60,304 nt of DNA. Source: Myxococcota bacterium. Lineage in GTDB: Bacteria; Myxococcota_A; UBA796; GCA-2862545. Each line of letters begins with the position of its first letter. Position 1 is the first letter of the stretch. The stretch spans positions 1 through 60,304 of the forward strand of contig JBCCQY010000048.1 of assembly GCA_039208735.1 (NCBI GenBank), in the 5' to 3' direction. Both the position numbers and the translations under genes were made by a program. Below the pieces are notes generated by a model. That model was not told where the DNA came from, made no database searches, and saw only the letters and a program-made list of their open reading frames with translations. Shown piece after piece: positions 25,963 to 51,309 of the stretch.

Positions 25963-26022
25963 GCGCGCGTGCCGCGAGCTGCCACATGCCTTATCGGACT
26001 CCGTTCATCTGGAGACGATGGC

Positions 26023-27936
26023 TTGTTGCTTGTCGCATCACTCCTGCTTGGGTGTTCGCCCGACCCCTACCCCGGGGAAGTCGGTGACATCCTGCATATC
26101 AGCCTTCGTTCGCTGCCGAAGACCATGGACCCACCCAGAGTGGAAGACCAGGCCAGTGGCAAACTGACGGCGAACATCTTCGAGGGGTTGGTGAGTTACC
26201 ACCCCTACGCCCGACCTTACCAGGTGCAACCGGCCATCGCGGCGAGCTTGCCGGAAGTCTCGGAAGACGGCCTCACCTACACGTTTCACTTGCGAGAAGA
26301 CGTGACGTTCCACGACGATCCTTGCTTTCCCGATGGGGAAGGCCGTCAGGTCGTCGCTTCGGACTTCGTCTACGCCATGAAGCGCTTTGCCCACCCGCGA
26401 ACGAACACCAAGAGCCTGTGGATGTTTCGCGATGCGCTGGTCGGGTTTGGCGCCTTTCGGAAGGGGACTCAGGCGGCCATTGAGGCGGAACACGAGGCGG
26501 GATTGCCCCCTACTCCGCTCCCCGGGCTCGACGAGGTGCCGCTCCCGGGCATCGAGGCGGTTGACAACCACACCCTCCGCTTGCACCTCACGCGCCCGTA
26601 TCCCCAGCTCATGTGGGTTCTTGCGATGCCTGCGGCCTCGGTGTACCCGCGTGAATGCGTGGCACACTACGGCGACGATTGGCGGAATCATCCTGTCGGG
26701 ACCGGCCCCTTCCGGATTACCGAGTATAACCCCGTCTACCGAGCGGTTTACGCCCGCAACGAAGACTACCGGGACGTCAGGGTGCCCGATCCGCGAAATC
26801 GCCCGGAGGACCGGTACCCGGACTGGGAGACCGACGAGGCCGCAGGGCGCTTGGCTCGGGCCGGTGAGCGCATTCCGTTTGTCGATGGCGTCGAGATACG
26901 GTTCATCCAGGAAGATCAGCCTCGCTGGCTCTATTTCAAGAACGGCCATACCGACTTTGTCAATCCCCCCAAAGACAACACGGCCGAGGCCTTGCCCAAG
27001 GGCGAGTTGTCGCCTGAACTCATCGACCGGGGAGTCACCGTTCAGCCTTGGGTCGAGCTGGGGACGGTGTACACCTGCCTCAACACCAAAGATGAGCGGA
27101 TGTCGAACGTCGATCTTCGGCGGGCGATGGCGCTTGCGTTCGACCACAAATGGACCGTCGACAACATGTACGCCGGCATGGCGGTGGTCGCGCATACCCC
27201 GGTGCCCCCAGGCGTCGCAGGTCACGTCGACTACCGACCGTACCACACCCAGGATGGGGCGTCCCAGATCGAGCGGGCCAAGGAGCTTCTTGCCAAGGCT
27301 GGCTACCCCGATGGCCTGGACCCGAAAACGGGCGACCGACTGCATCTGACCTTTCAGGGCTCTGGAACCTCGGTGACCAGTCGACAATTTGCGGCCCGAT
27401 TCGTCGATGAGATGCGTCGCATCGGCATCGAGGTCGACGTGGTGGTGAACACCTTCCCACAGCTCCTCGACAAGATGCGAAACCGGGAGTTCCAGGTCGC
27501 TTCACTGTCCTGGGGCTTCGACTATCCCGATGCCCAAAACATCCTGCAGTTGCTTTACGGCCCGAATGCGGCTCCGGGGATTGGTTCGGCGAGTTTCGAG
27601 AACGCCGAGTTCGATGCACTCTACGATCAAGCCGTGCTCCTGCCGGATTCACCCGAGCGCACCGCGATCTACGAACAGATGGCGCGTATCGTGTCCGACG
27701 AAGTGCCCTGGATCACTCGAGCCCACCGGATTCGACCCCATCTCAGCCATCGATGGCTCCACGGCTACAAGTACACCGAAGTCAACGACCAGCACATTCG
27801 CTACGTCTGGGTCGACGATGAACTGCGCGACGCCAGTGTGGCGGAATGGAACCGCCCCGTGCGGTGGCCCTGCGTTTTGTTTTCGTTCGTCCTCGTAGGG
27901 CTGGTTGCCGGCACGTTGGTGCGGAGGCCTCAGTGA
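26023..27936 (+). CDS. Peptide/nickel ABC transporter substrate-binding lipoprotein (family 5) with a C-terminal TM helix
   Basis: Lipobox LLLG-C, DGLTYTFHLREDVTFHDD, PVGTGPF and WGFDYPD. The TTG start is approximate. Confidence 0.9.
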   Translation: MLLVASLLLGCSPDPYPGEVGDILHISLRSLPKTMDPPRVEDQASGKLTANIFEGLVSYHPYARPYQVQPAIAASLPEVSEDGLTYTFHLREDVTFHDDPCFPDGEGRQVVASDFVYAMKRFAHPRTNTKSLWMFRDALVGFGAFRKGTQAAIEAEHEAGLPPTPLPGLDEVPLPGIEAVDNHTLRLHLTRPYPQLMWVLAMPAASVYPRECVAHYGDDWRNHPVGTGPFRITEYNPVYRAVYARNEDYRDVRVPDPRNRPEDRYPDWETDEAAGRLARAGERIPFVDGVEIRFIQEDQPRWLYFKNGHTDFVNPPKDNTAEALPKGELSPELIDRGVTVQPWVELGTVYTCLNTKDERMSNVDLRRAMALAFDHKWTVDNMYAGMAVVAHTPVPPGVAGHVDYRPYHTQDGASQIERAKELLAKAGYPDGLDPKTGDRLHLTFQGSGTSVTSRQFAARFVDEMRRIGIEVDVVVNTFPQLLDKMRNREFQVASLSWGFDYPDAQNILQLLYGPNAAPGIGSASFENAEFDALYDQAVLLPDSPERTAIYEQMARIVSDEVPWITRAHRIRPHLSHRWLHGYKYTEVNDQHIRYVWVDDELRDASVAEWNRPVRWPCVLFSFVLVGLVAGTLVRRPQ

Positions 27937-28865
27937 TTCGCTTCCTGATCCGACGCGTGGCGTACGCCATTCCCGTCTTGCTTGGGGTGGCTCTGATCAC
28001 CCTGTTTCTCTTCAATGTGGCGGGCGGGGATCCGGTCGCCATGAAGCTGGGCAAGAATCCCGACCCCACCCAATTGGCGTTGCTCCGCGAGGAACTCGGA
28101 CTCAACAAGAGCTTCGTGATGCAGTACGTTGACTTCGTCTGGCAGACGCTGACGTTTGACTATGGTCGTTCCTGGGCCGACGACACGCCGGTTCGCGAAG
28201 TGTTCTGGCGTGGTCTGGGGCCCACGTTGTCGGTTTCGCTTCCTGCGTTCGTGCTCGGGGCACTGCTCGCGATCGGGATTTCGCTTGTGGTTGCGTTGTA
28301 TCGAGGGTCCATTCTCGATCGTACGGTCACCGCACTCGCGGTGGCGGGTATCTCGATCAGTTCGTTGGTCTACATCTTGATCGGCCAGTGGCTGCTCGCG
28401 GACCAATGGAAGTGGTTTCCGGTGTGGGGCTACAGCTACGGACCTGGGGCGGTCGTCTTCGTGGCGTTGCCGGTGCTCATCTGGGTGAGCCTTTCGGTGG
28501 GCACCGACGTCCGGTATTTCCGTACCGTCGTCCTCGAAGAGATCGGTCGGGACTACGTTCGCACCGCACGAGCGAAGGGTCTGCGAGATGGCAACGTGAT
28601 GGTCCGGCACGTGCTGCCGAACAGCCTGATTCCCATCATCACGCGGCTCACCATCGGCTTGCCCTTTTTGTTCACGGGAAGCTTTCTGCTTGAAATCTTC
28701 TTCGGAATTCCAGGTCTGGGAAGCACCTTGTACACCGCCATCACCAACTCGGATCTGCCCGTTGTCAAGGCGTTTACGATGCTCGGGTCGGTGCTCTACG
28801 TTTTCTTCAACATCGTGGCCGACGTGCTGTACGCCTGGGTCGACCCAAGGATCCGTTTCGAATGA
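27933..28865 (+). CDS. ABC permease, OppB/DppB-like
   Basis: GTGA overlap. FLIRR, DYVRTARAKGL, HVLPN and DPRIR. Confidence 0.93.
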   Translation: MIRFLIRRVAYAIPVLLGVALITLFLFNVAGGDPVAMKLGKNPDPTQLALLREELGLNKSFVMQYVDFVWQTLTFDYGRSWADDTPVREVFWRGLGPTLSVSLPAFVLGALLAIGISLVVALYRGSILDRTVTALAVAGISISSLVYILIGQWLLADQWKWFPVWGYSYGPGAVVFVALPVLIWVSLSVGTDVRYFRTVVLEEIGRDYVRTARAKGLRDGNVMVRHVLPNSLIPIITRLTIGLPFLFTGSFLLEIFFGIPGLGSTLYTAITNSDLPVVKAFTMLGSVLYVFFNIVADVLYAWVDPRIRFE

Positions 28866-29812
28866 GCACTGTCGTACGTACTCCTGCTCGTGAAGCCTGG
28901 GACCGGTTCCGCAAGGATCGGTTTGCGGTGGTTTCCCTCGTGGTGTTTGGCCTGTTCGCGCTGACCGCCCTGGTGGCCCAGATCGTGGAGTTGGTGGATG
29001 GTCCGCCCTTTGTCTACGACCTCACCCTTTCCGAAATGGGGTTTGAGGTGTCGGAGACCGCGACTCCGCCTGACCCCACGCATCCGCTGACCAGTCTGGG
29101 CACGACTTCGCAGGGCAAGTCGGTGCTCATTCGCGCTTTTCATGGCACCAAGGTGGCCTTTGTCGTGGGGACGTTCGGGGCCGGACTGGCCGTGCTCATT
29201 GGCACCACGTTGGGCTTGGTGGCCGGCTTCTTTGGCCGCTGGATTGATGAGACCGTGGTCTATGTGTACTCGACGGTGGCGTCGATCCCCTATCTGCTGC
29301 TCATGTTGGCCCTGGCATTCATCGTGCGCCAAGGTCCGATCGCCGAGGTTTATCGGAGCCTATGGTTTGCCGACTACCTTTCGATCGGCTTGTTCAACAT
29401 CGTGGTGGTCGTCGGATGCACGTCATGGGTGACGTTGTGTCGTCTGGTGCGGGCCGAGGTCAAGAAGATCCGCAACCTCGATTACGTCCAAGCCGCTCGC
29501 GCATTGGGTCTGCCCCCACGCCGCATCCTCATTCGGCACATTCTGCCGAACGTGGCCCATCTGGTGCTCATCAACTTCAGTCTGACGTTCGTGACCGCCA
29601 TCAAGAGCGAGGTCATCCTGACCTTCCTGGGGGTGGGCGTGGACCGCGAACCAAGCTGGGGTCAGATGATCGCTGATGCAAAGTCGGAGCTGATGCAAGG
29701 CATCTGGTGGCCTTTGCTCACCAGTGGCATCGCCCTGTTCTTGCTTACGCTATCGGTCAACGTCATGGCCGACGCGATGCGAGACGCGCTCGATCCGCGC
29801 CTGCGTAATTAG
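28862..29812 (+). CDS. ABC permease, OppC/DppC-like
   Basis: ATGA overlap. DYVQAARALG, RHILPN, PSWGQMI and RDALDPR. Confidence 0.93.
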   Translation: MSTVVRTPAREAWDRFRKDRFAVVSLVVFGLFALTALVAQIVELVDGPPFVYDLTLSEMGFEVSETATPPDPTHPLTSLGTTSQGKSVLIRAFHGTKVAFVVGTFGAGLAVLIGTTLGLVAGFFGRWIDETVVYVYSTVASIPYLLLMLALAFIVRQGPIAEVYRSLWFADYLSIGLFNIVVVVGCTSWVTLCRLVRAEVKKIRNLDYVQAARALGLPPRRILIRHILPNVAHLVLINFSLTFVTAIKSEVILTFLGVGVDREPSWGQMIADAKSELMQGIWWPLLTSGIALFLLTLSVNVMADAMRDALDPRLRN

Positions 29813-29832: not shown

Positions 29833-30507
29833 CTATTCCAAGCTTTGGACCCGGACGACGGTGAGCGAGCTGGGCTGAATATCGCTCGGAAGCATGACTT
29901 CGTTTCCGTCGTCGGGCCGCGTGGTGGTGTATTGGAGGCTCAACTCCTGGCCCGCCTGAAGCTCAAGTGCGTCGGTGATCGTCAACGTGTCCCATCCGCC
30001 GTTAATGCCGTACCCCGAGGATGCTTTGAGCCGATCTTCACCGTCCACCCTAAGGTACAGCCCACTGGTGTGGGCAAAGTTTGTCGCAACCGCGCCGACT
30101 CGAGCCATAACCATGTAGATTCCCTCAGTCGGGACGACGATCGTGCTTGGGTCGCTCGTTCCAGGAAGCAGACCAAAGCCCTCGGTCCCTCCGATCTCGG
30201 TCATCTCCGCGAATACCACGGTGTTTCGAATCTCCCCCACGGCAATCGGTTGCTGCGTCCATCGCTCGAGGCGTACGCCGACTCGTTCGGTGGCCGTCAT
30301 CACCGCTGCAAGCTCGGCTCCAAGGATCTCATTGGCCGCCGTGAGCCCCTTGACCGAGGCTTCGAGCGTGTCGAGCCGATCGGTGAGTTCCCCTACGACC
30401 TCATCGAGTTCCGTTCTCGACACGTCGGTGGGCTCGACAGGGGGCATGACTTGGCAACCTGTCATGATCCACAAGAAGGCAGAGGCGTGAATCTCGTTTC
30501 TTGCCAC
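29833..30507 (-). CDS. Lipoprotein with a coiled coil and a C1q/TNF-like beta domain
   Basis: GAGGTG RBS and MTG-C lipobox. Heptad segment, then PTEGIYMVMARV...LELQAGQELSL. Confidence 0.65.
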   Translation of the reverse strand: MARNEIHASAFLWIMTGCQVMPPVEPTDVSRTELDEVVGELTDRLDTLEASVKGLTAANEILGAELAAVMTATERVGVRLERWTQQPIAVGEIRNTVVFAEMTEIGGTEGFGLLPGTSDPSTIVVPTEGIYMVMARVGAVATNFAHTSGLYLRVDGEDRLKASSGYGINGGWDTLTITDALELQAGQELSLQYTTTRPDDGNEVMLPSDIQPSSLTVVRVQSLE

Positions 30508-30585
30508 AATCGCACCTCACACTGTTGCGTAAGGGTAGCACTACTGAAGATCCCGGTTGGTTTCGTTCACGTCAGTGCCGGCGTC

Positions 30586-32976
30586 TCATCCCGACTCGCC
30601 GACGGGGGCCGTCACACACGACCAGCTGCCGTAGCCAAGGTCCACCGCATCTCTCCGGTAGTGTTCGCACCAACTCATCGAGGAGCATTCGGCGTCCAGG
30701 CAGGGAATGTCGGGGTCGGTGTAGGGGAGGCCCGTCTGATCGACGGGGAGGCCGGAGAGCACGAACTGGGGTGAAGCCAACAGCACGGCACAGTAGTCTC
30801 GAACGACCTCGCGGTGCTCATGGGCTGGCGCACTCAGCTCGACGTTCCAAATCTCGGAAATCTGGTTGGACTCGAGACCCGCTAGCCCCGCCTCCCGGTC
30901 CGCCCAGAGCCATTCCACCCCGATCATGCGGAACTTCAGGGCCTGCAAGGCCTGGCGCAGGGTGAGGCCGTGGGTGGCATCGGTCAAGGCATCGATCACA
31001 TCGTCGCCCCCGCCGTAGGGGGAGCGGCACTGGTACGCGCCACCCACCGTATGGTTGGTTTCCCAAGCCAGTGCTGAGGCCATGCCAAAGCGTGTGAATC
31101 CCGGTGCGAAATGCGACACATAAGCTCCAAGGTCGGTCTGAAGCTCGATGTCGTTGAAGTGGGTCGGCTGCGACCAGCCCAGCGCCGCGTTTCGTTTGCG
31201 AATGAGGGTCGGTACGGGCCAACGATGAATCAACTCGCCCTGGCCGTTGCGTGCCACCCCCGTGAGTGGGTCCTCGTCCGCATGGGCCGGCGTATCGTGC
31301 CAGGGATCGAGCACCATCGGTAAGACGTAGGGGTCGTGGGGGCTGTCTTCGGGCGCGTTCCGGTTGACGAACTCCGAAAGGGCGATTTGCTTGATGACAT
31401 AGCGCAACGACCAGTCATTTTCGACCAGCCCTTCCGAGAGTTCCTTAAGGACCAACGCTTGGTCGGCATTACGCGGAAACCCGTGCTCGAGCGTCAAGGC
31501 CTGACCCGACAGGTGTTTGGCGACATCCTCGACAAAGGTGAGGGCCGTGAGGTGGGCCATCCCCACCACCGGATCCGTATACACGGGGACCGGATCGGTC
31601 TGCTGATGGATCAGGTACCCTACGACCTCGTCCAGTGTTTCGTCGTTCAGAAGGAAGAGGGGCATCTGGCCTGCGGCAGACCCCGCGGTGATGGTCAATC
31701 GAAGGCGCTGGGCCGACATCGACGCCGTCAGAGTCTCAAGGTCCAATGGGACGGGATAGCCGTTGAGCATGCCATCGACGCCCGTGGCCTGGTGGCACAC
31801 GTCGCAGCTCGCCAAGTTGGGTTCACCGTCCGCGAGGGTTTCGTAGGACGACCGAGTCGTGGTGATGGGCGATCCATCCACGAGATCCCGAAGGCCATCA
31901 TCGAACTCGTCGAGGAAGTCGAGGATGCGCACCTGGGTCCCCGTGTGCTCACCCCATCCCGCGAACGCGGTTGGCGTGCCGTTTTGGCGAGGCCGAGGAT
32001 GCTCGAGCAGCCCATCGCCCACGCAGGTCTCGTCCATGCCCCAGGGCTTGTGCCCCGACTCGTTCGCATTGGCCTGAATGCGATTGAACAAATCCCGGAA
32101 CCGCTGTTGCATCTGGTTTCCGCCGATCGAGCCATCGTGCATGGTGCCATCGTCGTTGAGGCTACGGAAGGCGGAGAACTCGAGATCGATGTAGTCAACG
32201 GCGGGCACATAGCGGTCCCAATTGCCATTGCGAGGCACTGGATTGGTGGTGCTGTAGGTCGTGGTGTGACATTCAAGACAGTCTTGGTGACGATTGAAGT
32301 AGCTGTCGAACACCGTCCGTCGCGCATCGACCGCGCCTTCGAAAGCGGCCAGTGGAGCAAGGCGGGCTCGGAGCAGCGCGTCCATTCGGTCTGTACGGAG
32401 GCTCGCTCGAAGGACGTCCTTCATCGTGAATTCAAAGCACTCACGGCGACCCTTGCTCGCCGACGTCGTGGCCCTTCGTCCATCGTCCCGGGGCCGACTA
32501 ACGAGGGTCCGGCCGGCATGTTCTTCCGCCAGTTTCCCCGCGGTCCGCCCTCCGGCGTCGAGCGTTAGATCGTCACTCGCACTTTCATTCGAAACGCAAA
32601 AGCGCTCATCCCAATTTGCGGTGCGCAGATGGTTGGTCAAGGCCCAGTCGTAGTTTTGCGGTACATATGCCTCGGTGTAGCACCGTTCTTTGGCGTTGCT
32701 CGCATCTTCCGTCGATACGCGGAGCTGGTGCATCAGCAAGTCGTCCCAATGATCCACAAACTCGGGCTGTTGCATCAGCGTGTCGAGCAGCGCCTCACGG
32801 CCGTGCTGGTGTTCCAGTGAGATCAGGGCGGTGAGTTCTTGCGGACTGACCGGGCCGCGTCCAAGAAGGGCGTTGGTGGACCACATGACAAACGCTCGGT
32901 CCCCCGCATCGTCTTCGGGAAGGTTCCAACATCCGCTCAACCCAACGAGGGCCGACGAGAAAATCCATGTTCGCAT
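30586..32976 (-). CDS. Large lipoprotein with two CxxCH heme motifs (DUF1549/DUF1585-like scaffold plus an inserted cytochrome c domain)
   Basis: Lipobox LSG-C. LLGRGP...EFVDHW, CLECH (about 32266-32280), CDVCH (about 31792-31806) with a distal QMP, and LLASPQF. Confidence 0.72.
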   Translation of the reverse strand: MRTWIFSSALVGLSGCWNLPEDDAGDRAFVMWSTNALLGRGPVSPQELTALISLEHQHGREALLDTLMQQPEFVDHWDDLLMHQLRVSTEDASNAKERCYTEAYVPQNYDWALTNHLRTANWDERFCVSNESASDDLTLDAGGRTAGKLAEEHAGRTLVSRPRDDGRRATTSASKGRRECFEFTMKDVLRASLRTDRMDALLRARLAPLAAFEGAVDARRTVFDSYFNRHQDCLECHTTTYSTTNPVPRNGNWDRYVPAVDYIDLEFSAFRSLNDDGTMHDGSIGGNQMQQRFRDLFNRIQANANESGHKPWGMDETCVGDGLLEHPRPRQNGTPTAFAGWGEHTGTQVRILDFLDEFDDGLRDLVDGSPITTTRSSYETLADGEPNLASCDVCHQATGVDGMLNGYPVPLDLETLTASMSAQRLRLTITAGSAAGQMPLFLLNDETLDEVVGYLIHQQTDPVPVYTDPVVGMAHLTALTFVEDVAKHLSGQALTLEHGFPRNADQALVLKELSEGLVENDWSLRYVIKQIALSEFVNRNAPEDSPHDPYVLPMVLDPWHDTPAHADEDPLTGVARNGQGELIHRWPVPTLIRKRNAALGWSQPTHFNDIELQTDLGAYVSHFAPGFTRFGMASALAWETNHTVGGAYQCRSPYGGGDDVIDALTDATHGLTLRQALQALKFRMIGVEWLWADREAGLAGLESNQISEIWNVELSAPAHEHREVVRDYCAVLLASPQFVLSGLPVDQTGLPYTDPDIPCLDAECSSMSWCEHYRRDAVDLGYGSWSCVTAPVGESG

Positions 32977-32991
32977 AGGAACTCCTTGAAG

Positions 32992-34302
32992 CTACTGCTG
33001 AATGAGGTTGAGGATGGGACCGGGGTTCGAGTCATCGGGCTCACCTGCCAATTGCGCAAGTCCGTCGAGCAGCATCGAAGGGGTGATGGAATCCGTTTCG
33101 GTGGTGGAGCTACGCACGATGCCGTTGCTTTCGGACTGGTAGGACAGCCGACCGGTCAGGCCGGGGGTGTTGATCGGACCGCCGAAGAGGAGGGAGGCAT
33201 AGGCGTCCGCCCAGTGCTCGGAGCCGTTGACCCCATCGAGGAATCGTCCGAACTCTGCGTGAAACACCACGAGTGTGGAATCCAGATCGAGATGCTCCGC
33301 GGTCCGCAATGCCTCGCAGATGCCCCAGATGATTGCATTGTGGTGCGAGGAGTGTGCGGTGTCGTGGTTGTCGATTTGGTGAGTGTCGAAATCGGGGGCG
33401 GCATTTCGTCCACCGATGATGGTGACGTGACGGGCGCCCTCGTGCAGGAGATGGACCCCGAGTTGAACCGATTTGGTGATTCCGTTGGACGTGTACGAAT
33501 TGCTTTCGAACGTCTCGACATCAGGCCCGTCGCTTAGCACGCCATGGGTCTGCTCCCAGGCGGCCATCCGGGCCATTGCATCGTTGTAGATCCCGAATTC
33601 GGGAGCCCTCACCGGGCCGGTGGAGTGGCGCAATCGGCGCTCGTAGCGCGCCCGGTACGCCGTGAGTAGCGAATCGGTATTGGACCGGTTGGCGCGGGAA
33701 AGACGGCTCACGAACGGCCGGCCTACGGGCACGACGAAGGGCCGCGCGTGGAGACCGAGCGAACCGGTGGCGGTCGCCAGGCTGGTTAGCGTAGCGTTCT
33801 GCTCTGGATCAAGGACCCAAGACGCGGGCATGTCCCCGGTGCCCCAAGCGTCCTGGATGCGAGCCCCAAGCGAAACAGCAGCAGGATTGCCGATGTTGAT
33901 GCCTGAAAGTGCATAACTGGCCGCCAGAGTGTGGGCGGAGAAGGGCGCCCGCATCGCGACGAGATGGGTTCGAGCGACGCCACCCAACTCCGCGAGGGGG
34001 TGAAAGCCGTCCCCCAGCATCACGGCATGGTCGAGGCCAGGATGGGTGGTGTCGGTCGCATGAATTTGCCGATACGCCCCTGCAGCCGACGGGATTCGGG
34101 CCGAAACGGGGTCTCCAAAAGGGCCATTGTGGGGCATCCACAGCGTTTGGCTATGGGCAGGGGCACGAAACAGGAAGATCTGCAAGATCTTGAGGGGCGC
34201 TGGGCCGGCCGGCAAACTGGCTCGAGCCCCTCCAGAAAGCAGGCTTGCTCCGGCAGCAAGGCCCAAGCCTTGCAGGAGCTGTCGTCGTGATTGCATGGGC
34301 AT
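32992..34302 (-). CDS. Tat-exported DUF1501-like protein
   Basis: SRRQLLQGLG twin-Arg signal. FDTH, TLVVFHAEFGR, GSEHW and LLFGG. Confidence 0.78.
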   Translation of the reverse strand: MPMQSRRQLLQGLGLAAGASLLSGGARASLPAGPAPLKILQIFLFRAPAHSQTLWMPHNGPFGDPVSARIPSAAGAYRQIHATDTTHPGLDHAVMLGDGFHPLAELGGVARTHLVAMRAPFSAHTLAASYALSGINIGNPAAVSLGARIQDAWGTGDMPASWVLDPEQNATLTSLATATGSLGLHARPFVVPVGRPFVSRLSRANRSNTDSLLTAYRARYERRLRHSTGPVRAPEFGIYNDAMARMAAWEQTHGVLSDGPDVETFESNSYTSNGITKSVQLGVHLLHEGARHVTIIGGRNAAPDFDTHQIDNHDTAHSSHHNAIIWGICEALRTAEHLDLDSTLVVFHAEFGRFLDGVNGSEHWADAYASLLFGGPINTPGLTGRLSYQSESNGIVRSSTTETDSITPSMLLDGLAQLAGEPDDSNPGPILNLIQQ

Positions 34303-34327
34303 CCTCGCGTTGGTCGTCCTCGACCTC

Positions 34328-34343
34328 GCAAGGCTCAGGCCAA
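34328..34343 (-). promoter_or_regulatory. Sigma-54 -24/-12 promoter of the DUF1501 operon
   Basis: Minus strand reads TTGGCCTGAGCCTTGC (TGGC-N7-TTGC). An AT-rich tract lies upstream at 34342-34376. Confidence 0.75.
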
Positions 34344-34423
34344 ATCAAGAAGGCCTAAAAATAGAGATTTAAACAACGACATGCCCTTGGGGGCGCGCTC
34401 GCTTCGCGCGAGAGCCGGCTGCG

Positions 34424-34438
34424 CCGCGCAAACCGCGC
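34424..34438. promoter_or_regulatory. Candidate upstream activator sequence CCGCGCAAACCGCGC
   Basis: 14/15 identical to 37474-37488, with the same 97-bp offset from the -24 GG. Confidence 0.65.
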
Positions 34439-34455
34439 GGGCTACACCGTCAGTC

Positions 34456-36540
34456 ATGGACCCTGAACAGACCGTCGTTCCAAACAGCGCGGTTGGTGGC
34501 ATGCCGGCCCCCTTGGTGGCCGGCCGATACCACGTGGGTGACCTCGTGGGCCGAGGAGGGGGAGGACAGGTTCACCGCGGGGTGGACACCTTCACGGGTG
34601 ATGACGTGGCGCTGAAGTTTGTTCGGCGCGATTCGCAGGGGGCCTCTGCACAACTTCGCCGTGAGCTCACCGCCCTGCGCTTGGTGGACCTTCCAGGCGT
34701 GGTGCGACTTCGCGACGATGGCCTTCACGACGGGTTCATCTTCTTGGTGATGAACTGGCTCGATGGCGGATTGTTCGACTCCCTCGGGGCGACGGGTTGG
34801 GAGAAATGGAAGACCCAGGCGTTTGCTCTTCTGGAAGCCGTGGGCCGACTTCACTTTCTTGGCCTGGTCCATGGCGACCTCAAGCCCTCCAACGTCCTCC
34901 TCGATGCTGCACAACGACCCGTCATCACCGATTTTGGGTTGGCAAGTGGCGCCGCGGTCACCGACACTGAGGGATGGATCGCAGGGACGGCCCGCTACAT
35001 GGCGCCCGAACAACGACGTGGCGAACCCCTGGATGGCCGAGCCGACCTGTACGCGCTCGGCGTGATGTTCGAATCGATGGGCGCCCCGCCGGATGCCTGC
35101 TCGGTGTTTCGATGGATGCAGGCGGCCAAACGCGAGGACCGCCCCGATTCTGTCGAAGCCGTGCTGGAGGCCTTGGGAGCGGGTGGTTCGCTGGTCGGGG
35201 TGTTTCCCGAGTTGAGCGACCGGGTCACGGTCCGCGAACTACGAAGGTTGTTCTTGGGCCGTCCCTCGTTCTTGCACGTAGCCGAAGATGCGGCTGCGGT
35301 CCTGCTCCAACGGACGACGGGTCGTCGCGAGGCCGTATGCAACGAGCTCGAGCGATGGATTCGAGCCGGTTTGTGCTACCGCGACGGACCGGGCGTGGTC
35401 ATTCGTCGTGATGCGGTCGAGCGCATCATCGGCGAACGTCGAGCCGTCAGCCCCTCCCTGGATGCTGCTCTGCGTGCCCACCGCAGAGGAGAGACCCGAC
35501 AGGGTCTCGCGATCTTGGCGGCCCTCGATGACCGGTCCCCCGACGCAGCGGATGCCACCGTTGACCTTGCGCTGAGCCTGTGGTCGCCCCCGGTGGTTCG
35601 GGCCGCCGCCTACCAGGCCGAACGACGCGGATGGACGCTTGCCGGACAGGTGCTTGGCGCTGCGCAAGCCGTGCTCTCCGGCAATGCCGAGAAGGCCCTG
35701 GCTGCGCTCGGCCCCCCCTCTAAGACCTTCGATCGCCTACAGGGGTGGCGACTGGGCGTAGGCATCAGTGCCGCCTTGCGCACGGGTCAAGTGGACGGCT
35801 GGCTGGACGCGGCGGACCGGTGGGCCAGTGACGATGCGTTTCGCCGGGCTCGGCTCGCGGCCTGGCGAGGGCGCATCGCCTATGTGCGGGGCGATTTCGA
35901 AGCGGCACTGACCCACGAGCGACAAGCCTTGAGCGGGGCCACGGTGCCTGTCGTTCGTCTGTCTCGATTGACGACGGCGGCTGCGGCAGCCCTTGAGACC
36001 TCTGCGATGGCCGAAGCCCGAGCGTGGGCGACCCAAGCTCGCCGCATGGCCCGGCGTCTTCGACATGGTGTGGCCGAAGCGAGAGCGTGGTGGCTCGTAC
36101 GCACGATTGCGCTACGCAGCGGCGCGGTTCCGCCCCCCCAGCCCCAGTGGGTGCCCGCCGCTCAAGAAGTCCACGGGTTCATCGGAGCTCAACTCGCCCT
36201 CACCGAGTGTGCGCTTGCGTGGCATCACGAACAGATCCCCCTTGCGGCTGAACTGTCGATCCAAGCGCTCGACGGTTTTGGGTCACGGGCCGCGATCGCC
36301 GACCTGGCTCGTGCGTTGGCTTGGCGCTGTGGGGTGTCGGAGCCCCCCACCCAGCTGTCGGGGGGATCCGCCGAACTCGATTTGCAGACGTGGACGCTGT
36401 GTGCGGAGGGAGGACTCGTTCTCGGTACTCCCCCCACGGTGCCCGAGCCACGCCTCGTGGATCGCTGGCTCGACGTGCTGCCCGGGGATCGATGTCGGGA
36501 GGCCGTCAGTCGATGGGGATGGGGAAGTTGGCCGGGCTGA
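34456..36540 (+). CDS. Hanks-type Ser/Thr protein kinase with a helical TPR-like C-terminus
   Basis: GRGGGG, VALK, HGDLKPSN, DFG, GTARYMAPE and DLYALG. Confidence 0.9.
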   Translation: MDPEQTVVPNSAVGGMPAPLVAGRYHVGDLVGRGGGGQVHRGVDTFTGDDVALKFVRRDSQGASAQLRRELTALRLVDLPGVVRLRDDGLHDGFIFLVMNWLDGGLFDSLGATGWEKWKTQAFALLEAVGRLHFLGLVHGDLKPSNVLLDAAQRPVITDFGLASGAAVTDTEGWIAGTARYMAPEQRRGEPLDGRADLYALGVMFESMGAPPDACSVFRWMQAAKREDRPDSVEAVLEALGAGGSLVGVFPELSDRVTVRELRRLFLGRPSFLHVAEDAAAVLLQRTTGRREAVCNELERWIRAGLCYRDGPGVVIRRDAVERIIGERRAVSPSLDAALRAHRRGETRQGLAILAALDDRSPDAADATVDLALSLWSPPVVRAAAYQAERRGWTLAGQVLGAAQAVLSGNAEKALAALGPPSKTFDRLQGWRLGVGISAALRTGQVDGWLDAADRWASDDAFRRARLAAWRGRIAYVRGDFEAALTHERQALSGATVPVVRLSRLTTAAAAALETSAMAEARAWATQARRMARRLRHGVAEARAWWLVRTIALRSGAVPPPQPQWVPAAQEVHGFIGAQLALTECALAWHHEQIPLAAELSIQALDGFGSRAAIADLARALAWRCGVSEPPTQLSGGSAELDLQTWTLCAEGGLVLGTPPTVPEPRLVDRWLDVLPGDRCREAVSRWGWGSWPG

Positions 36541-37345
36541 GATCGTAGGTGTAGTCCGTCTGGGTGTACCACTCGATGCTCGGGATGTTGTATTTCGCAA
36601 AGAACGCCCCTGTGGTGGCCGGCGGCTTGTCTGAGACCGCCACGACCCTCAGGGTCTCGCCTTCCTCATCGAGCATGGAAAACGACGCGTCGAACAACCA
36701 GTGCTCGACGATTTTCGTGGTGTTGCCATCGTTTATGTGCCGCTCCCGCAGCATCGCCCCGGCGAAGCACACCGAAGGCACCGTCCAAGCCGAGCCTACG
36801 TAGTCCCCACAAGACCCTTCGGTGGATTGCACCAACACGAAGGCATGCCGCTCGATCTTCGAGCCGCCGTACGTAAACTGCTGGCCTTGGGTGCTCGTTG
36901 GCGGGGTGGTGGTGGTGGTGTACGCAAACTGCGGAGCGCTGTAGGCATCGTTGAGCCAGTCCTCGTGGTTGTTCTTGAGGTATTCGAAGGTCCACTCGAG
37001 ACTGGCTTTGGGCTTGATCATCTCGAGTTCGAACGGGGCGCCTGCGTCCTCTGCGAAGCTCGGTGAGACGATCCAGTGCTCGACGAACGTCTCCCCTTGG
37101 GCCACAGGGGTATCCACCGTTTCACCGAAGATCGTGCCCATTTCGATGCCGTTGGAGGTGAGCGTCACGACGCCCTCGTCGATCTGGAACACGGGGGTGG
37201 GAGTGGCGGCGAACCCGAGCCCTCGGTCTCGCGTGGTGCGGGGCGAGCGGTCCCTCAGGTCATCGAGCAGCTCCAGGTGCCGTTCGTAGGCTTCCGGCGA
37301 GTCATCGGCGAGGGACGGAGACGACAGCAGCATCAAGGCAATCAT
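36506..37345 (-). CDS. Secreted hypothetical protein with a weak internal duplication
   Basis: GGAG RBS and signal MIALMLLSSPSLA. Two similar segments, VEHWIVSPSF and VEHWLFDASF. Confidence 0.7.
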   Translation of the reverse strand: MIALMLLSSPSLADDSPEAYERHLELLDDLRDRSPRTTRDRGLGFAATPTPVFQIDEGVVTLTSNGIEMGTIFGETVDTPVAQGETFVEHWIVSPSFAEDAGAPFELEMIKPKASLEWTFEYLKNNHEDWLNDAYSAPQFAYTTTTTPPTSTQGQQFTYGGSKIERHAFVLVQSTEGSCGDYVGSAWTVPSVCFAGAMLRERHINDGNTTKIVEHWLFDASFSMLDEEGETLRVVAVSDKPPATTGAFFAKYNIPSIEWYTQTDYTYDLSPANFPIPID

Positions 37346-37376
37346 AAGCAACGCTCCAGGAGGGGACCCGGGTCGC

Positions 37377-37393
37377 TGCAATTCATGCGCCAG
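37377..37393 (-). promoter_or_regulatory. Sigma-54 -24/-12 promoter of the secreted protein gene
   Basis: Minus strand reads CTGGCGCATGAATTGCA (TGGC-N7-TTGCA). Confidence 0.8.
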
Positions 37394-37455
37394 CCGCGGG
37401 TGAGGCACCATACCGAATCTGTGGGCTTGATCCACGTCCGAGGCATGCGCGCTTG

Positions 37456-37488
37456 GCGCGGTGCGCGCGCGAACCGCGCGAACCGCGC
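37456..37488. promoter_or_regulatory. Candidate upstream activator sequence with GCGCGAACC direct repeats
   Basis: GCGCGAACC occurs twice (37467-37484), with an inverted half-site at 37456-37466. The region contains CCGCGCGAACCGCGC. Confidence 0.65.
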
Positions 37489-37490
37489 AT

Positions 37491-38891
37491 TCACCCCCGC
37501 TGGCGAACTCGCAGCCCGTGCTTCTTCACAAAGCGCGCCAGCACGTGGCGACTGGATAGCCCCAGCTCTCGCCAGGCCGGTTCTTGATGGCCTCCGTGGC
37601 GGTCGAGGACCGCTTGAACGAGGACCGGATCGAGGGTGCCCGGATCGACCGGTCCGCTGGGTTGTGAGGGCAACGAGGAGGCCTGCATCTCGGGGCCAAG
37701 TTGGTCGAGCACCCCATCGCGGGCGTAAGCAATCGCCGACCAGAGCAACCCTTCGAGCTGCCGTACATGGGTTGTGTAGCGCTCGGTGAGCAATCGGCGG
37801 AGCAGCCGGAAGCTCACCCGAGGCCCGCGATCGAGCTGGCCTTCGGCAAACAACCGTTGTTGAAGACCCTCATCCTCGGCAACGATGCGCCGGATCAAAT
37901 GGACGACGAGCAGGGGAATGTCATCGAGTCGGTCCTCGAGGGGCGGCACGGTCACATGAATCTTGAACCGAGCCCGAAGGTCGTGCTTCAGCGACGCGAG
38001 GTCGCGATTGGTGGCGGCGATGATACGCAAGTCCGACCTTCGTGCGCGAGCCTCGCCAAGCCGGGTGTACTCCCCGTCGTCGGCCACCCGCAGGAGCCGG
38101 GCCTGGACCGGCTCGGGCAACTCGCCAAACTCATCTAAGAACAGTGTCGAACCGTCCGCCTCTCCGATGAGACCGGGGCGAGCCGGCATGCCGGGATTGG
38201 GGTACCCGCGGGTGTTCCCAAAGAGTTCAGCGTCCGCCAGGGACTCGGGAATCGTGGCGGCACTGCGCGTCACCAGCGCGTGGTGACCCCGCCCAGACTG
38301 GGCGTGGAGGGCGCGGGCGACGAATTCCTTGCCGCTTCCAGACGGTCCCGTCACCAGAACGTGCACGCCACGCGCCGAGACGAAGCGTAGGCGCTCCCGA
38401 AAGTGCCAAGAGACGTCGGACTCACCGACCCACCCCGCGGCGTCCGGCCCTCCCCACGGCACCATTTCGGACGCCGAAGGAGGCAGGGGGCGCCGGTGGC
38501 TGACCCGAAGCATGACCCGGTCGCCGAGCTCGATCAGGTCGCCTTCGTGAACGGGGCAGCGCGTGGCCGGTTGTCCGTTCAGCCGCAACGGCAGACGTCC
38601 CAGGTTTTCAATCTCGATCTGGTCCCTGCGCACCGTGACTTGGAGCTGCTTGCGAGAGAGCTGAGGGTCGTTGAGCGGGCCGGTAGGCTCGATCGTACCG
38701 GGTCGGTGGCGGCCCCAAGGCAACGTGCCATGGCGCCCCAACACAGGGTCGCTCTGCCCTTCGAGGTTTGCAAATTCTCCCACCCTTCCCGGAGCTTCGG
38801 GAAAGGCCATGATGCAGAACCCACGTTCCACGGGTTCACCGCGAGGCGGGCCTCGCTCGGGAGACCATTCGTGGGTCGTCGTGTCACTCAT
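37491..38891 (-). CDS. FHA-domain sigma-54 enhancer-binding protein with a non-canonical loop (GYPNPGMP instead of GAFTGA)
   Basis: FHA-like LGR...DPQLSRKQ...NG, GPSGSGKE, ELFGNTRGYPNPGMP, LFLDEFGE, IAATNR and a C-terminal HTH. Confidence 0.88.
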   Translation of the reverse strand: MSDTTTHEWSPERGPPRGEPVERGFCIMAFPEAPGRVGEFANLEGQSDPVLGRHGTLPWGRHRPGTIEPTGPLNDPQLSRKQLQVTVRRDQIEIENLGRLPLRLNGQPATRCPVHEGDLIELGDRVMLRVSHRRPLPPSASEMVPWGGPDAAGWVGESDVSWHFRERLRFVSARGVHVLVTGPSGSGKEFVARALHAQSGRGHHALVTRSAATIPESLADAELFGNTRGYPNPGMPARPGLIGEADGSTLFLDEFGELPEPVQARLLRVADDGEYTRLGEARARRSDLRIIAATNRDLASLKHDLRARFKIHVTVPPLEDRLDDIPLLVVHLIRRIVAEDEGLQQRLFAEGQLDRGPRVSFRLLRRLLTERYTTHVRQLEGLLWSAIAYARDGVLDQLGPEMQASSLPSQPSGPVDPGTLDPVLVQAVLDRHGGHQEPAWRELGLSSRHVLARFVKKHGLRVRQRG

Positions 38892-38961: not shown

Positions 38962-40647
38962 CTAGGGTTTACGCCGAACGACAGGAGCGACAAGTCCGAG
39001 GCCGAAGAGTGTCATCGGAGCCGTCCCTCCGGTTCCCGAACAGCCACACTCCTCGGGCCCAACGTCGATCGGCGTATTCGGGGGGGTGTCGGGGGGGGCC
39101 TTGGGTTCCTTCGGCTCCTTCGGGTCAGGCGGCGGGGGCTCGCCCGTTGTGGCGTAGGTCTGAGCGGCTCCGCAGCCTTCGTTGCCCGCGCGGTCCTCGG
39201 CGCACAGGGTGACGTCGGTGGTGGTGCCTGCGACAAGCCCCGGTAGCACCACGTGAAAGAGGTCTCCCCCGACAAACCGTGCTGGAACCTCCTCGATGCC
39301 TTGACCAAAGTCGCCTCGCGCAAAGGCTCGGCGAAGTCGGGGTCCGCGGTCGGTGACCACCGCGTCGCGCACGGCGAATCGGACCGTCGTCGGGGTGTCT
39401 GCATCGACGGTGCCAGGCGCTTGTTGGTGCGTGACGATGGGGGGATTGGGATCCGCCATGGCGGGGGCGGTTCCCAGGTAGACGAGATTGGTCTCGGGAA
39501 AGCCCTCCCCTTGGCCCGTGACCGCATCGAGGATGCCATCACCGTCGAAGTCGCCGACGTCGCCCCAAAGTGTAGGGTCGGCGACCGCGGCAAAACCGTC
39601 CTTGGCTGGGCTGAAGGTTCCGGTCCCATCGTTCGTGAGCACCCGTTCGGTGGCCTCCAACGACCACACGATGGCGTCGAAATCGTTGTCGTGGTCGAGA
39701 TCCGCACACGCCACGCCGTTGTCGTCTGCTCCCGGATTGCCCGTGACCCGCGTTCGGGTCTCTTCAACAAATCGGCCCGTGCCGTCGTTGATGAGCAGCT
39801 GTTCGGTGAAGCTCGGACCGATGTTGTCCACCCAGATGTCGAGGTGGCCGTCGCCGTTCACGTCACAGATGCCGGGGTTGTAATGGAAGTTACTCCGCGC
39901 GGGGGCCAAGTTGTCGCTCGCGTCGGTGAAGCGACCGGTGCCGTCGTTTAGCCACAGGGTGTTGTCGCCTGCGTGGGCGTTGATCAGGATGTCGAGGTCA
40001 AAGTCACGATCGGCATCGAACAGGTCCAGATCGTCGTGGTCTTCGCCAGTGGCCCACGTCGTTGGAAGCTGGTCTGAGGCATTCGTGAACGTCCCTGCAC
40101 CGTCGTTGAGGAGCAAATGTGCGAGTTGACCAAGCGGGCCGGACTGCGCGTAGCCATCGGTCACGATGATGTCGAGATCGCCGTCACCGTCCAGGTCGCC
40201 CATGCGCGTCGCCCCGGCCCGAGTGGGCACCGCAGGCAAACGAGCCAGCTGCTCATCGACGAACCTCCCCGTTCCGTCGTTGATGAACAGGGCGGCCGGG
40301 TTTCCCGTGCCATCGGGTACGTAGAGGTCGAGGTCGCCATCGGCATCGATGTCGCCCGCGGCCACCTGCCGAACCCGGCCCGCAAAGCCGCCCATCGCGG
40401 TTGCTGACACTTCCGTGAACTGGGCGGACCCATCGTTTTGGTAAATGCCAAGGCGCTGGGGGAAACCCTCTTCGAAGAACCCCGAGTAGTTCGCGACGAT
40501 CACATCGAGATGGCCGTCGCCGTTGAGGTCATCGGCGCGTAGGTAGTTGGTCCAACACCCTCCGCCTTCACACAACTGGACATCCAAAGCGTCGTCCTGC
40601 GGCACAAGTACGGGCGCAGCGTAGGCTAGGGTCGCGACAAGGAGCAT
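38962..40647 (-). CDS. FG-GAP/VCBS repeat secreted protein with a MYXO-CTERM-like anchor
   Basis: Repeated DxDGDGDLD and NDGTGRF. C-terminus is CGCSGTGGTAPMTLFGLGLVAPVVRRKP. Confidence 0.87.
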   Translation of the reverse strand: MLLVATLAYAAPVLVPQDDALDVQLCEGGGCWTNYLRADDLNGDGHLDVIVANYSGFFEEGFPQRLGIYQNDGSAQFTEVSATAMGGFAGRVRQVAAGDIDADGDLDLYVPDGTGNPAALFINDGTGRFVDEQLARLPAVPTRAGATRMGDLDGDGDLDIIVTDGYAQSGPLGQLAHLLLNDGAGTFTNASDQLPTTWATGEDHDDLDLFDADRDFDLDILINAHAGDNTLWLNDGTGRFTDASDNLAPARSNFHYNPGICDVNGDGHLDIWVDNIGPSFTEQLLINDGTGRFVEETRTRVTGNPGADDNGVACADLDHDNDFDAIVWSLEATERVLTNDGTGTFSPAKDGFAAVADPTLWGDVGDFDGDGILDAVTGQGEGFPETNLVYLGTAPAMADPNPPIVTHQQAPGTVDADTPTTVRFAVRDAVVTDRGPRLRRAFARGDFGQGIEEVPARFVGGDLFHVVLPGLVAGTTTDVTLCAEDRAGNEGCGAAQTYATTGEPPPPDPKEPKEPKAPPDTPPNTPIDVGPEECGCSGTGGTAPMTLFGLGLVAPVVRRKP

Positions 40648-43386: not shown

Positions 43387-43402
43387 AGGCTGAAGGTTTG
43401 CA
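43387..43402 (+). promoter_or_regulatory. Possible sigma-54 promoter
   Basis: AGGCTGAAGGTTTGCA (GG-N10-GC), about 50 bp upstream of the ATG at 43455. Confidence 0.4.
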
Positions 43403-43454
43403 ACTCTGGTGGTCATGTTCGGTCGCGTTGCCTCGTCTCCAAGGGGATAGGACC

Positions 43455-45792: not shown

Positions 45793-47496
45793 TTGCGATG
45801 GACGGCTTCAATGGTTCCCTTGGTCACGTTGGCGTGCTCGTTTCCAGACCGCCCCAACAGACCTTCTCCCCAAGGAATTGACGACAATGCAGAAGAGCGC
45901 CGAGACCGGGCGCGGGGGGACCGAAACGACGGAGACTTCGACAGGCCAACGGTAGAAGAGCGTGAAGTTCGCAACTTCGATGGAACGAACAACAACCTTG
46001 CCAATCCGGAGTGGGGGGCCTCGTTTACGCATCTCGAGCGGTGGGTGCCGGCAGACTATGGCGATGGGCGAGCCACGTTGGCGGGCGCGGAACGCCCCAG
46101 TGCGAGATTGGTTTCGAACCTGATTGCGGCGCAACCCGAAGACGAAGAGGACCCCAACCCGTTTCGGGCCAGCGATTTTGTGTGGCAGTGGGGCCAGTTC
46201 GTCGACCACGACATCGGCCTGACGGACGGCGCAGAGGAACTGGCGCCCATCCTGGTTCCCACCGGGGATCCGTGGTTCGATCCGCAGCGTACCGGAACCC
46301 AGGTCATTCCCTTCAATCGAGCGCTTTTCGACCCCGCAACGGGAACCACAAGCCCGCGCGAACAAGAAAACGAGATCACTGCGTGGATCGACGGTAGCAT
46401 GGTCTACGGCTCGTCCGAGGTTCGGGCGACGGCGTTGCGGGAATCCTCGAACAGCCCGTTTCTCGACACGAGCGGTGGCGACTTGTTGCCCTTCAATCGG
46501 GATGAACTGACCAACGCCAATGGCCCCGTCGCGAACCCGAGTCGGCTGTTTCTGGCTGGCGATGTCCGGGTCAATGAACAGGTGGGCCTGGCCACGATGC
46601 ATACGCTGTTTGTACGCGAACACAATCGATGGGTCCGGGAGCTTGAGGACGAGCGTCCTGACGCCGACGGCGAGGCCCTTTACCAGCAAGCTCGTCGGCT
46701 CGTCATCGCCGAAATCCAGATCATCACCTACGAGGAGTTTCTGCCTGCGCTCATCGGGGCAAACGCGATGCCGGCGTACACGGGCTACGATGCAACCGTC
46801 CACCCGGGTTTGTTCAATGGCTTTTCGGTTGCCGCGTTCCGGCTTGGGCACAGCATGGTCAACCCGCAATTGCGGCGCATCGATGACGATGGACGCACCA
46901 TCGGGGCGGGAAACCTCGATCTTCGGGAGGCGTTTTTCACCGCTCCCCAGGTGCTAGACGGGCGCCGAGACCTCGAACCTATCTTGCGAGGGCTCGCATC
47001 TCAGCGACATCAACGGCTAGACACCCGCGTGGTGGCCCCGCTTCGGAACTTTCTGTTTGGCGAGCCTGGTTCGGGGGGGCTCGATCTGGTCGCCCTGAAC
47101 CTTCAGCGAGGTCGAGACCACGGCGTGCCGAGCTACGTATCCGTGCGTCAGGCGTTGGGGTTGGGGACGGTCACGTCGTTTAGCGACATCACGGCGGATG
47201 TGGATGTCCAGGCGCGCCTTGAAGAGGCGTACGGACAGGTCTTGGCCATCGACCTGTGGGTCGGGGGGCTGGCCGAGGACCCGCTTACCTCCGAGGGGTC
47301 GCAGGTTGGTCCATTGTTTCGGACGATGCTCGTCCGTCAATTTGCCGCGCTCCGGGATGGGGACCGATTTTGGTACACCCGTGACCTGAGTGCCGATGAG
47401 CTAAGCCGCGTCTCGGGCACGCGACTGTCGCAGATCATTCGGGCCAACACCACCATTGGCAACGAGCTATCCGACGACGTCTTCCACGTCCCCTGA
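45793..47496 (+). CDS. Heme peroxidase of the peroxidase-cyclooxygenase (animal peroxidase) superfamily, lipoprotein
   Basis: WGQFVDHD, IDGSMVYG, GDVRVNE, REHN, AFRLGHS, NLQRGRDHG and RDGDRFWY. Lipobox TLA-C. Confidence 0.93.
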   Translation: MRWTASMVPLVTLACSFPDRPNRPSPQGIDDNAEERRDRARGDRNDGDFDRPTVEEREVRNFDGTNNNLANPEWGASFTHLERWVPADYGDGRATLAGAERPSARLVSNLIAAQPEDEEDPNPFRASDFVWQWGQFVDHDIGLTDGAEELAPILVPTGDPWFDPQRTGTQVIPFNRALFDPATGTTSPREQENEITAWIDGSMVYGSSEVRATALRESSNSPFLDTSGGDLLPFNRDELTNANGPVANPSRLFLAGDVRVNEQVGLATMHTLFVREHNRWVRELEDERPDADGEALYQQARRLVIAEIQIITYEEFLPALIGANAMPAYTGYDATVHPGLFNGFSVAAFRLGHSMVNPQLRRIDDDGRTIGAGNLDLREAFFTAPQVLDGRRDLEPILRGLASQRHQRLDTRVVAPLRNFLFGEPGSGGLDLVALNLQRGRDHGVPSYVSVRQALGLGTVTSFSDITADVDVQARLEEAYGQVLAIDLWVGGLAEDPLTSEGSQVGPLFRTMLVRQFAALRDGDRFWYTRDLSADELSRVSGTRLSQIIRANTTIGNELSDDVFHVP

Positions 47497-51299: not shown

Positions 51300-51309
51300 A
51301 GCCGAGACC

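Follow-up and report, generated by a model that had tools for sequence, protein, structure and literature searches.

Can an enhancer-binding protein without the GAFTGA motif activate sigma-54, and what would switch it on? This question is raised by a locus in a 60,304-nucleotide contig of a Myxococcota bacterium (JBCCQY010000048.1; the whole stretch is called the window hereafter), in which a bacterial enhancer-binding protein (bEBP) with FHA, AAA+ and helix-turn-helix (HTH) domains is encoded close to a Ser/Thr kinase and two -24/-12 promoters. An earlier note on this DNA had proposed a complete circuit, from kinase to bEBP to sigma-54, with an envelope redox module as its output. We consider it probable that the bEBP belongs to a kinase-linked family of FHA-AAA+-HTH sigma-54 activators in which the pore loop GAFTGA is replaced by GYPNPG and whose enhancer can be read from the DNA. 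Sequence comparison established the domains, the loop, the ATPase residues, the promoters, their common repeat, and the linkage of kinase and promoters to such bEBPs across Myxococcota; from these we infer that the window bEBP activates sigma-54 and is itself phosphorylated. The earlier note took sigma-54 activation for granted; because the protein lacks GAFTGA, this is the most novel step of the proposal and the one that needs proof.

The minus strand carries, in order, the bEBP gene, promoter 2 and the gene of a 279-residue exported protein, then promoter 1, a DUF1501 gene, the gene of a 796-residue lipoprotein and a 224-residue orphan; the kinase gene lies between the two groups on the plus strand, convergent with that of the exported protein (Table 1). 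In the mechanism that we propose, the HTH would bind GC-rich repeats at predicted sites about 50-100 bases upstream of the two promoters, the neighbouring cytoplasmic kinase would switch the bEBP on by Thr phosphorylation, and the bEBP would still activate sigma-54 through the replaced loop. The local output would be the exported protein together with a periplasmic pair, a cofactor enzyme of the DUF1501 family exported by twin-arginine translocation (Tat) and its membrane-anchored c-type cytochrome partner.

A conserved loop in place of GAFTGA

The FHA-bEBP proposed by the earlier note is borne out by Pfam, which finds Sigma54_activat (E 3e-37) and FHA (21.0 bits, cut-off 20.7). Neither GAFTGA nor a tolerated single substitution of it is present, the loop reading GYPNPG. 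The closest PDB matches are ZraR (1ojl) and NifA (9qq6) by sequence, and ZraR and NtrC1 by fold, the structure model reaching a predicted local distance difference test (pLDDT) score of 90.9. The alignment to ZraR and NifA is gapless across the loop, which has the same length, and the loop aromatic therefore falls one place before the GAFTGA Phe. Among the best 120 of 1797 matches, all homologs display the pattern x[YF]P[NQS]x at this position (Pro and Tyr/Phe in 120, Gly in 118, Asn in 111). That the loop is mere damage was rejected because it is fixed in the clade. The same 120 homologs show invariant or near-invariant Walker A GKE, Walker B DE, sensor I NR, two arginine positions (120 and 119) and sensor II Arg. 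Within the RSAAT motif, the window bEBP has Ser, as do 31 of the 120, where 89 have Asn, at what we take to be the AAA+ switch asparagine position.

According to a cryo-EM preprint, F216, T217, L263 and I203 of NtrC1 form the pocket for sigma-54 region I, and K213 contacts DNA (PMC11839083). By a mapping made in this analysis, the counterparts of L263, I203 and K213 in the clade are Leu in 120/120, Leu in 119/120 and Lys or Arg in 74/120 homologs. We find it likely that the hexamer pulls sigma-54 region I, with the Tyr or Phe of the loop serving as the pore aromatic. Canonical bEBPs (ZraR, NifA, NtrC1, PspF; PF00158) share the AAA+ fold, the catalytic residues and the loop length with the window bEBP, whereas the latter has no Phe or Thr in the GAFTGA register and an FHA input rather than a receiver or GAF domain. 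It does have the PF00158 AAA+ residues and nearby -24/-12 promoters with candidate upstream activator sites; we do not file it as a canonical bEBP, but it likely works like one. TyrR, DhaR, HupR and VpsR fail the GAFTGA test in the same way; in Francke 2011 these are sigma-70-linked, often with deletions (PMC3162934), whereas the YPNPG clade has a full-length, strongly conserved substitute loop beside -24/-12 sites.

The YPNPG domains are monophyletic (69/69 against 26 others, support 0.937) and sit on a long branch. The genome of the window (G000, GC content 64%) contains one rpoN and 29 bEBP-like open reading frames (ORFs), of which three carry YPNPG and most of the 26 others GAFTGA-type loops. 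Matches at clade level occur in 34 of 301 genomes of the phylum, the loop having been checked only in those fetched, and the clade is present in 15 of 61 near relatives; it has members in the cultured genera Sorangium, Nannocystis, Minicystis and Enhygromyxa. A literature search whose coverage excluded most subscription journals gave no description of the clade among the entries listed, and the string YPNPG does not occur in six supplements of Francke 2011 (PMC3162934). Elsewhere in G000, a bEBP at C37:487-1566 has the loop RATGVA.

Sigma-54 promoters and their upstream repeats

The two sigma-54 promoters proposed by the earlier note were recovered as -24/-12 sites on the minus strand. The bare consensus TGGC-N7-TTGC is not in excess genome-wide (661 matches, against 460-679 at other spacings). 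The two window sites exceed chance. When the upstream regions of 259 intergenic sigma-54-like sites of G000 are compared, those of the two window sites match each other best, with 33 of 50 bases identical in register (mean 21.4, standard deviation 2.1), and the orthologous promoters in G013, from another genus, and G002, from the same genus, are closer to the consensus than the window sites themselves.

Across the family, intergenic sites were scored at the correct spacing and at four wrong spacings. Of the 252 gene heads lying no more than 2.5 kb from a YPNPG bEBP, 20 had a correctly spaced site, against 1-3 at the four wrong spacings; in the controls, such sites were found at 7/193 far heads in YPNPG loci, 4/80 heads near canonical bEBPs of G000 and 53/4761 elsewhere in G000. 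Counted independently of start calls, there were 55 sites in 45 of 82 loci, against 6-18 sites (5-17 loci) at wrong spacings. In a held-out set of 15 loci (20 fetched, less 3 duplicates and 2 unparsed by the motif search), 13 sites fell in 10 loci, against 0-4 at wrong spacings; at the strict score, 7 loci were positive, against 0-1, the expectation from G000 being about 0.1 for each such stretch. Sigma-54 promoters thus follow the YPNPG clade.

Upstream of each window promoter lies a GC-rich repeat, with 94 bases from repeat core to TGGC in both cases. A terminator as the sole reading of these repeats was rejected because repeat 1 sits between two divergent starts. The word GCGCAC occurs upstream of 22 of 32 YPNPG-linked promoters, against 70/418 and 11/83 in controls, and its position peaks 60-80 bases above the -24 box. 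Repeats could be typed in 41 loci of 103 rows, or 38 after three ties were dropped. All seven loci with the GGGCGC type, scattered over several branches of the tree, have Arg or Lys before the last HTH Arg, against 0 of the 31 others; helices of the window type, SRHVLAR, pair mostly with GCGCGG (5/6 with Ala/Thr). Such a correlation between repeat and HTH residue is what binding by the YPNPG HTH would predict. A degenerate repeat-plus-promoter pattern searched over 61 genomes was swamped by chance, controls being as high as matches. With the common repeat in register, the claim that one bEBP controls both promoters gains support, and very probably both answer to the window bEBP.

Similar DNA is found elsewhere in G000. 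A near copy of window repeat 2 lies upstream of the gene for a C1-peptidase/PKD lipoprotein (L004:8529-9412; C21 near 22739), together with a seemingly decayed -24/-12 box; for the gene above it, a good sigma-54 site is present. Far from any YPNPG bEBP, at C17:27567, C106:3466 and C5:63433 (L134-L136), there are further sigma-54 sites accompanied by similar GC repeats; the candidate remote targets are a small exported protein encoded next to two kinases, a protease of the S8 family and a lipoprotein resembling trypsin.

Kinase and FHA domain as the proposed input

The neighbouring Ser/Thr kinase, also called in the earlier note, is matched by Pkinase (E 7e-30), and its catalytic residues K54, E70, D141, K143, N146, D159, P184 and E185 are invariant in 17 kinases of this type. 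By a rough test, the best 19-residue hydropathy is 1.12 in the window kinase and at most 1.84 in the 17, values that do not mark a membrane receptor; in the absence of a clear membrane helix, its signal is probably cytoplasmic. A kinase is encoded within 1.5 kb of the bEBP in 39 of 79 YPNPG loci (30/51 with full flanks) and in 12 of 15 held-out loci, against 5 of 26 for canonical bEBPs and 104 of 1613 (6%) for genes taken at random. This supports the proposed kinase linkage. The kinases concerned have many unrelated architectures. On this evidence, the adjacent kinase is probably the input.

FHA-domain enhancer-binding proteins of Myxococcus xanthus, with kinase neighbours and a proposed phospho-Thr input to sigma-54, were reportedly described by Jelsbak, Givskov and Kaiser in 2005. 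They have the FHA-AAA+-HTH layout, kinase neighbours and proposed input of the window bEBP, from which they differ in that the window clade has GYPNPG, a divergent FHA domain, a separate position on a long branch and a family-specific upstream repeat. The full phospho-Thr signature of FHA domains consists of GR, SxxH and N. The window FHA domain, modelled as all-beta, has GarA as its closest solved relative by profile (E 1.7e-4), and GarA and other FHA chains top the search; the Arg is kept in 114 and the Ser in 119 of the 120 homologs. An N-terminal [DE]x0-2T motif is found in 82 of 100 full-length homologs, against 15% of 5724 G000 genes. In GarA, regulation acts through an ETTS motif that precedes the FHA domain (PMC12321487), and by analogy the tail of the window bEBP suggests a similar phospho-switch. 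GarA and OdhI have the Thr motif in the same place, whereas the window FHA domain is fused to an AAA+ activator, does not keep the His and Asn, and is part of a protein for which phosphorylation is only proposed. We hold only tentatively that the phosphorylated site is the bEBP's own acidic-Thr tail, which its FHA domain would then capture as in GarA/OdhI.

An exported protein as the proposed conserved output

The 279-residue exported protein belongs to an unnamed family of 114 representatives, with an N-terminal hydrophobic stretch in 69 of 103; no Pfam match was found in 90 members. The two G000 members have no significant match to each other by pairwise BLAST and are joined by profile. The structure model (pLDDT 85, predicted template-modelling score 0.84) had no usable Atlas match, no clear fold match in PDB (best Z 2.9 among 48,161 chains) and no Foldseek match at E 0.001, which does not prove a new fold. 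Among 61 relatives, 12 have the family, and the YPNPG clade occurs in 11 of these 12. Of 24 distinct loci with a gene of this family, 17 have a kinase of the window type beside it and 13 have a YPNPG bEBP in the vicinity; the cassette is duplicated on C249. We read the exported protein as the conserved output of the circuit. Beside two paralogous YPNPG bEBPs, G000 has further targets, one a lipoprotein of the C1 peptidase type and the other of the beta-helix type. Targets across the family are interchangeable exported proteins.

Some family members (L125, L131, P0200, P0212) seemingly have no signal peptide, and the genes of two of them, L125 and L131, lie directly 3' of a kinase gene. Two targets of YPNPG-linked promoters, at L052:6008-6457 and L075:1856-2347, look globin-like by eye.

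The DUF1501/cytochrome pair is recruited cargo

Both genes of the redox pair are as the earlier note described them: DUF1501 is matched at E 5.5e-8 in a protein with a twin-arginine start, and the lipoprotein has CxxCH at residues 233 and 391 and a lipobox-like Cys. Both CxxCH motifs are kept in 7/7 close homologs examined, and some paralogs have one. The Pfam matches of the lipoprotein to PSCyt2 and PSD1 are below cut-off; its first Atlas match (0.91) is annotated with PSCyt3/cytochrome c, and template-modelling scores to DUF1592-like models are 0.56-0.59. Among solved structures, the DUF1501 profile search reached no relative with E below 0.085. G000 has genes for cytochrome c assembly. Modules of DUF1501 with PSCyt/PSD have been described by Kamneva et al. 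2012, who proposed them for membrane-targeted electron transfer (PMC3542564), and the pair is therefore not uncharacterised in kind. The modules of the Planctomycetes-Verrucomicrobia-Chlamydiae (PVC) group have a Tat DUF1501 gene adjoining one for an exported PSCyt/PSD-type protein with cytochrome motifs (PMC3542564), an arrangement that the window pair resembles; the window pair differs in its lipoprotein, a version from Myxococcota into which a cytochrome c domain is inserted, and in its sigma-54 promoter. A role of the window pair in electron transfer is conceivable, and rather doubtful. Through this pair, an unexplained module of the DUF1501/PSCyt kind would be tied to an inducible promoter.

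The synteny that the earlier note called for was found in G013, where a single contig carries the bEBP, promoter, exported protein, kinase, promoter, DUF1501 and lipoprotein in this order, and not the orphan. In G002, the orthologous pair lies away from any bEBP in the contig examined, and has kept a consensus promoter and GC repeat. In all three of three genomes, a sigma-54 site is present at the orthologous DUF1501 operon, and none was seen at six paralogous pairs. Beyond these orthologs, the co-occurrence of kinase, YPNPG bEBP and DUF1501 anticipated by the earlier note held for the kinase and failed for DUF1501: DUF1501/CxxCH neighbours were counted in 80 of the 308 confirmed YPNPG loci and in 17 held-out loci, with 0/80 and 0/17. 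On these counts, and with the pair unlinked from the bEBP in G002, the redox pair was rejected as the family-wide output and the pair is recruited, lineage-specific cargo of the known PVC-type module. The orphan, which the earlier note labelled C1q-like and counted as a possible part of the circuit, has no Pfam C1q match and no profile match at E 0.5, and found only itself among 845 candidates; it was rejected as a conserved part because the pair in G013 is not followed by it and no homolog turned up among those candidates. One protein, P0126 (840 aa), joins an N-terminal DUF1501 part to a C-terminal CxxCH-lipoprotein part, and is either a true fusion or an assembly artefact.

Weighing the explanations

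A number of points weigh against a kinase-linked sigma-54 activator. Francke 2011 regards the GAFTGA Phe and Thr as essential and classes Thr-to-Pro variants, including three from Sorangium, as inactivated (PMC3162934), and a 2025 survey calls GAFTGA invariant and uses it as a filter (PMC12316311). At 37 of 82 YPNPG loci there is no qualifying sigma-54 site, and at 27 of 79 no kinase in the sampled DNA. The canonical FHA His is Gln in 110 of 120 homologs, the Asn of the GarA GSLNGT loop is missing and the loop is one residue shorter; without this His and Asn, phospho-Thr binding may be weak. Exact GCGCAC occurs in only 2 of 7 strict held-out promoters, several having GGGCGCCC instead, and the correlation between HTH and DNA, drawn from 38 of 103 rows and from related sequences, is post hoc because the variants other than GCGCAC were defined after the held-out promoters had been inspected. 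Only 2 of the 11 copies of the exported-protein gene with no bEBP nearby have a sigma-54 site and repeat directly upstream. Finally, genes were called with a simple codon model made for this analysis, and gene starts depend on that caller.

Four other explanations share parts of this evidence. The bEBP could activate sigma-54 without being directly switched by the kinase next to it; its FHA domain would then bind a non-phosphorylated ligand or protein, and the kinase would serve the exported-protein pathway. The missing His and Asn fit this idea, as does the tighter linkage of the exported-protein gene to the kinase (17/24) than to the bEBP (13/24); the near-invariant FHA Arg and Ser, the conserved acidic-Thr tail and the unrelated kinase architectures found beside these bEBPs speak against it, and we regard it as unlikely. 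Rather improbable is a mixed ring of the HrpR/HrpS kind, for which these two proteins are the precedent, in which the YPNPG protein would supply DNA targeting and ATPase and only a canonical GAFTGA partner would touch sigma-54. Partners would be at hand among the 26 other bEBP-like ORFs of G000, most of them GAFTGA-type, and hetero-oligomeric bEBPs have reportedly been found in M. xanthus; yet a canonical bEBP is found in only 5 of 79 YPNPG loci within the DNA examined, and the YPNPG loop is under strong conservation of its own.

If instead the protein were a repressor or anti-activator, binding at the repeats would block sigma-54 promoters opened by another bEBP until the kinase released it. 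A protein that has lost GAFTGA can usually no longer activate sigma-54, as Francke 2011 has it (PMC3162934), and repeat 1, 17 bases from the kinase start, is well placed to repress the kinase gene. Sites 50-100 bases upstream are however in an activator's position and not over the promoter, no second conserved element or partner was seen, and the ATPase residues are invariant, all of which makes repression quite improbable. It is very improbable, last, that the protein acts as an atypical regulator of the sigma-70 type, in the manner of TyrR, HupR or VpsR, for which there is precedent (PMC3162934), with the -24/-12 matches arising by chance in GC-rich DNA: the bare consensus is indeed not in excess genome-wide, but enrichment is specific to spacing in both discovery and held-out sets, which links the clade to sigma-54 promoters, and the -24/-12 sites are conserved in orthologous promoters.

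Returning to a kinase-linked sigma-54 activator, its widest form is one that we would put slightly below an even chance. It would make the clade a Myxococcota-wide AAA+ class that opens sigma-54 promoters with a YPNPG loop lacking Phe-Thr, is phosphorylated in its N-terminal tail, and binds a GC-rich enhancer read by a one-residue HTH code; the rule of counting bEBPs by GAFTGA would be wrong, and would have filtered out regulons of exported proteins, one of them with a new fold. If true, a natural family working without GAFTGA would be a direct test of which pore-loop features the unfolding of sigma-54 region I requires, and roughly one in ten of the sampled Myxococcota genomes (34/301) would hold overlooked regulons. 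Readable enhancer sites and members in cultured genera make this cheap to test.

Features of the locus and neighbouring genes

An ORF check and Pfam located the genes where the earlier note had placed them (Table 1).

Table 1. Features of the locus, in window coordinates, from the bEBP gene to the orphan
Feature	Position	Strand	Evidence or comparison
FHA-AAA+-HTH enhancer-binding protein of the YPNPG clade; N-terminal acidic-Thr tail, divergent FHA, intact ATPase residues	37491..38891	-	Pfam, profile search, alignment, model
GYPNPG loop in GAFTGA position	38190..38207	-	Sequence, alignment
Repeat 2: imperfect inverted repeat, rich in GC; candidate site for activator binding upstream of promoter 2; after bEBP stop codon, terminator role possible	37445..37490	-	Similar repeat in G013, G016
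Promoter 2: sigma-54 -24/-12 site; predicted start near 37366	37378..37392	-	Sequence, site scoring
279-aa exported protein, unnamed family, linked to window kinase type	36506..37345	-	
Hanks-type Ser/Thr kinase, HGD replacing HRD; about 450 further residues without Pfam match, no clear transmembrane helix	34456..36540	+	
Repeat 1: candidate site for activator binding upstream of promoter 1, in register with repeat 2; flanked by two divergent starts, the kinase ATG being 17 bases away	34393..34439	-	
Promoter 1: sigma-54 -24/-12 site; predicted start near 34316	34328..34342	-	Sequence, site scoring; orthologous sites in G013, G002
Tat-signal DUF1501 protein (start possibly 34296)	32992..34302	-	32.8 bits, cut-off 27; N-terminal RR motif
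796-aa lipoprotein resembling PSCyt/PSD (DUF1549/1553/1592-like) proteins; second CxxCH in inserted cytochrome c domain with candidate distal Met	30586..32976	-	
224-aa orphan, lipoprotein-like; may be co-transcribed here, but is no conserved part	29833..30507	-	

Around the locus, a second kinase-bEBP pair is encoded at 47467-51608 (-), where a canonical GAF-GAFTGA bEBP lies immediately upstream of a kinase fused to an FGE-sulfatase-like domain. A peptide ABC binding protein and two permeases are encoded at 25969-29812 (+), with no ATPase gene directly 3'. FG-GAP and thrombospondin-3 (MtsC-like) proteins with MYXO-CTERM tails, a sign that the genome is myxobacterial, are encoded at 38962-40647 (-) and 43398-45689 (+).

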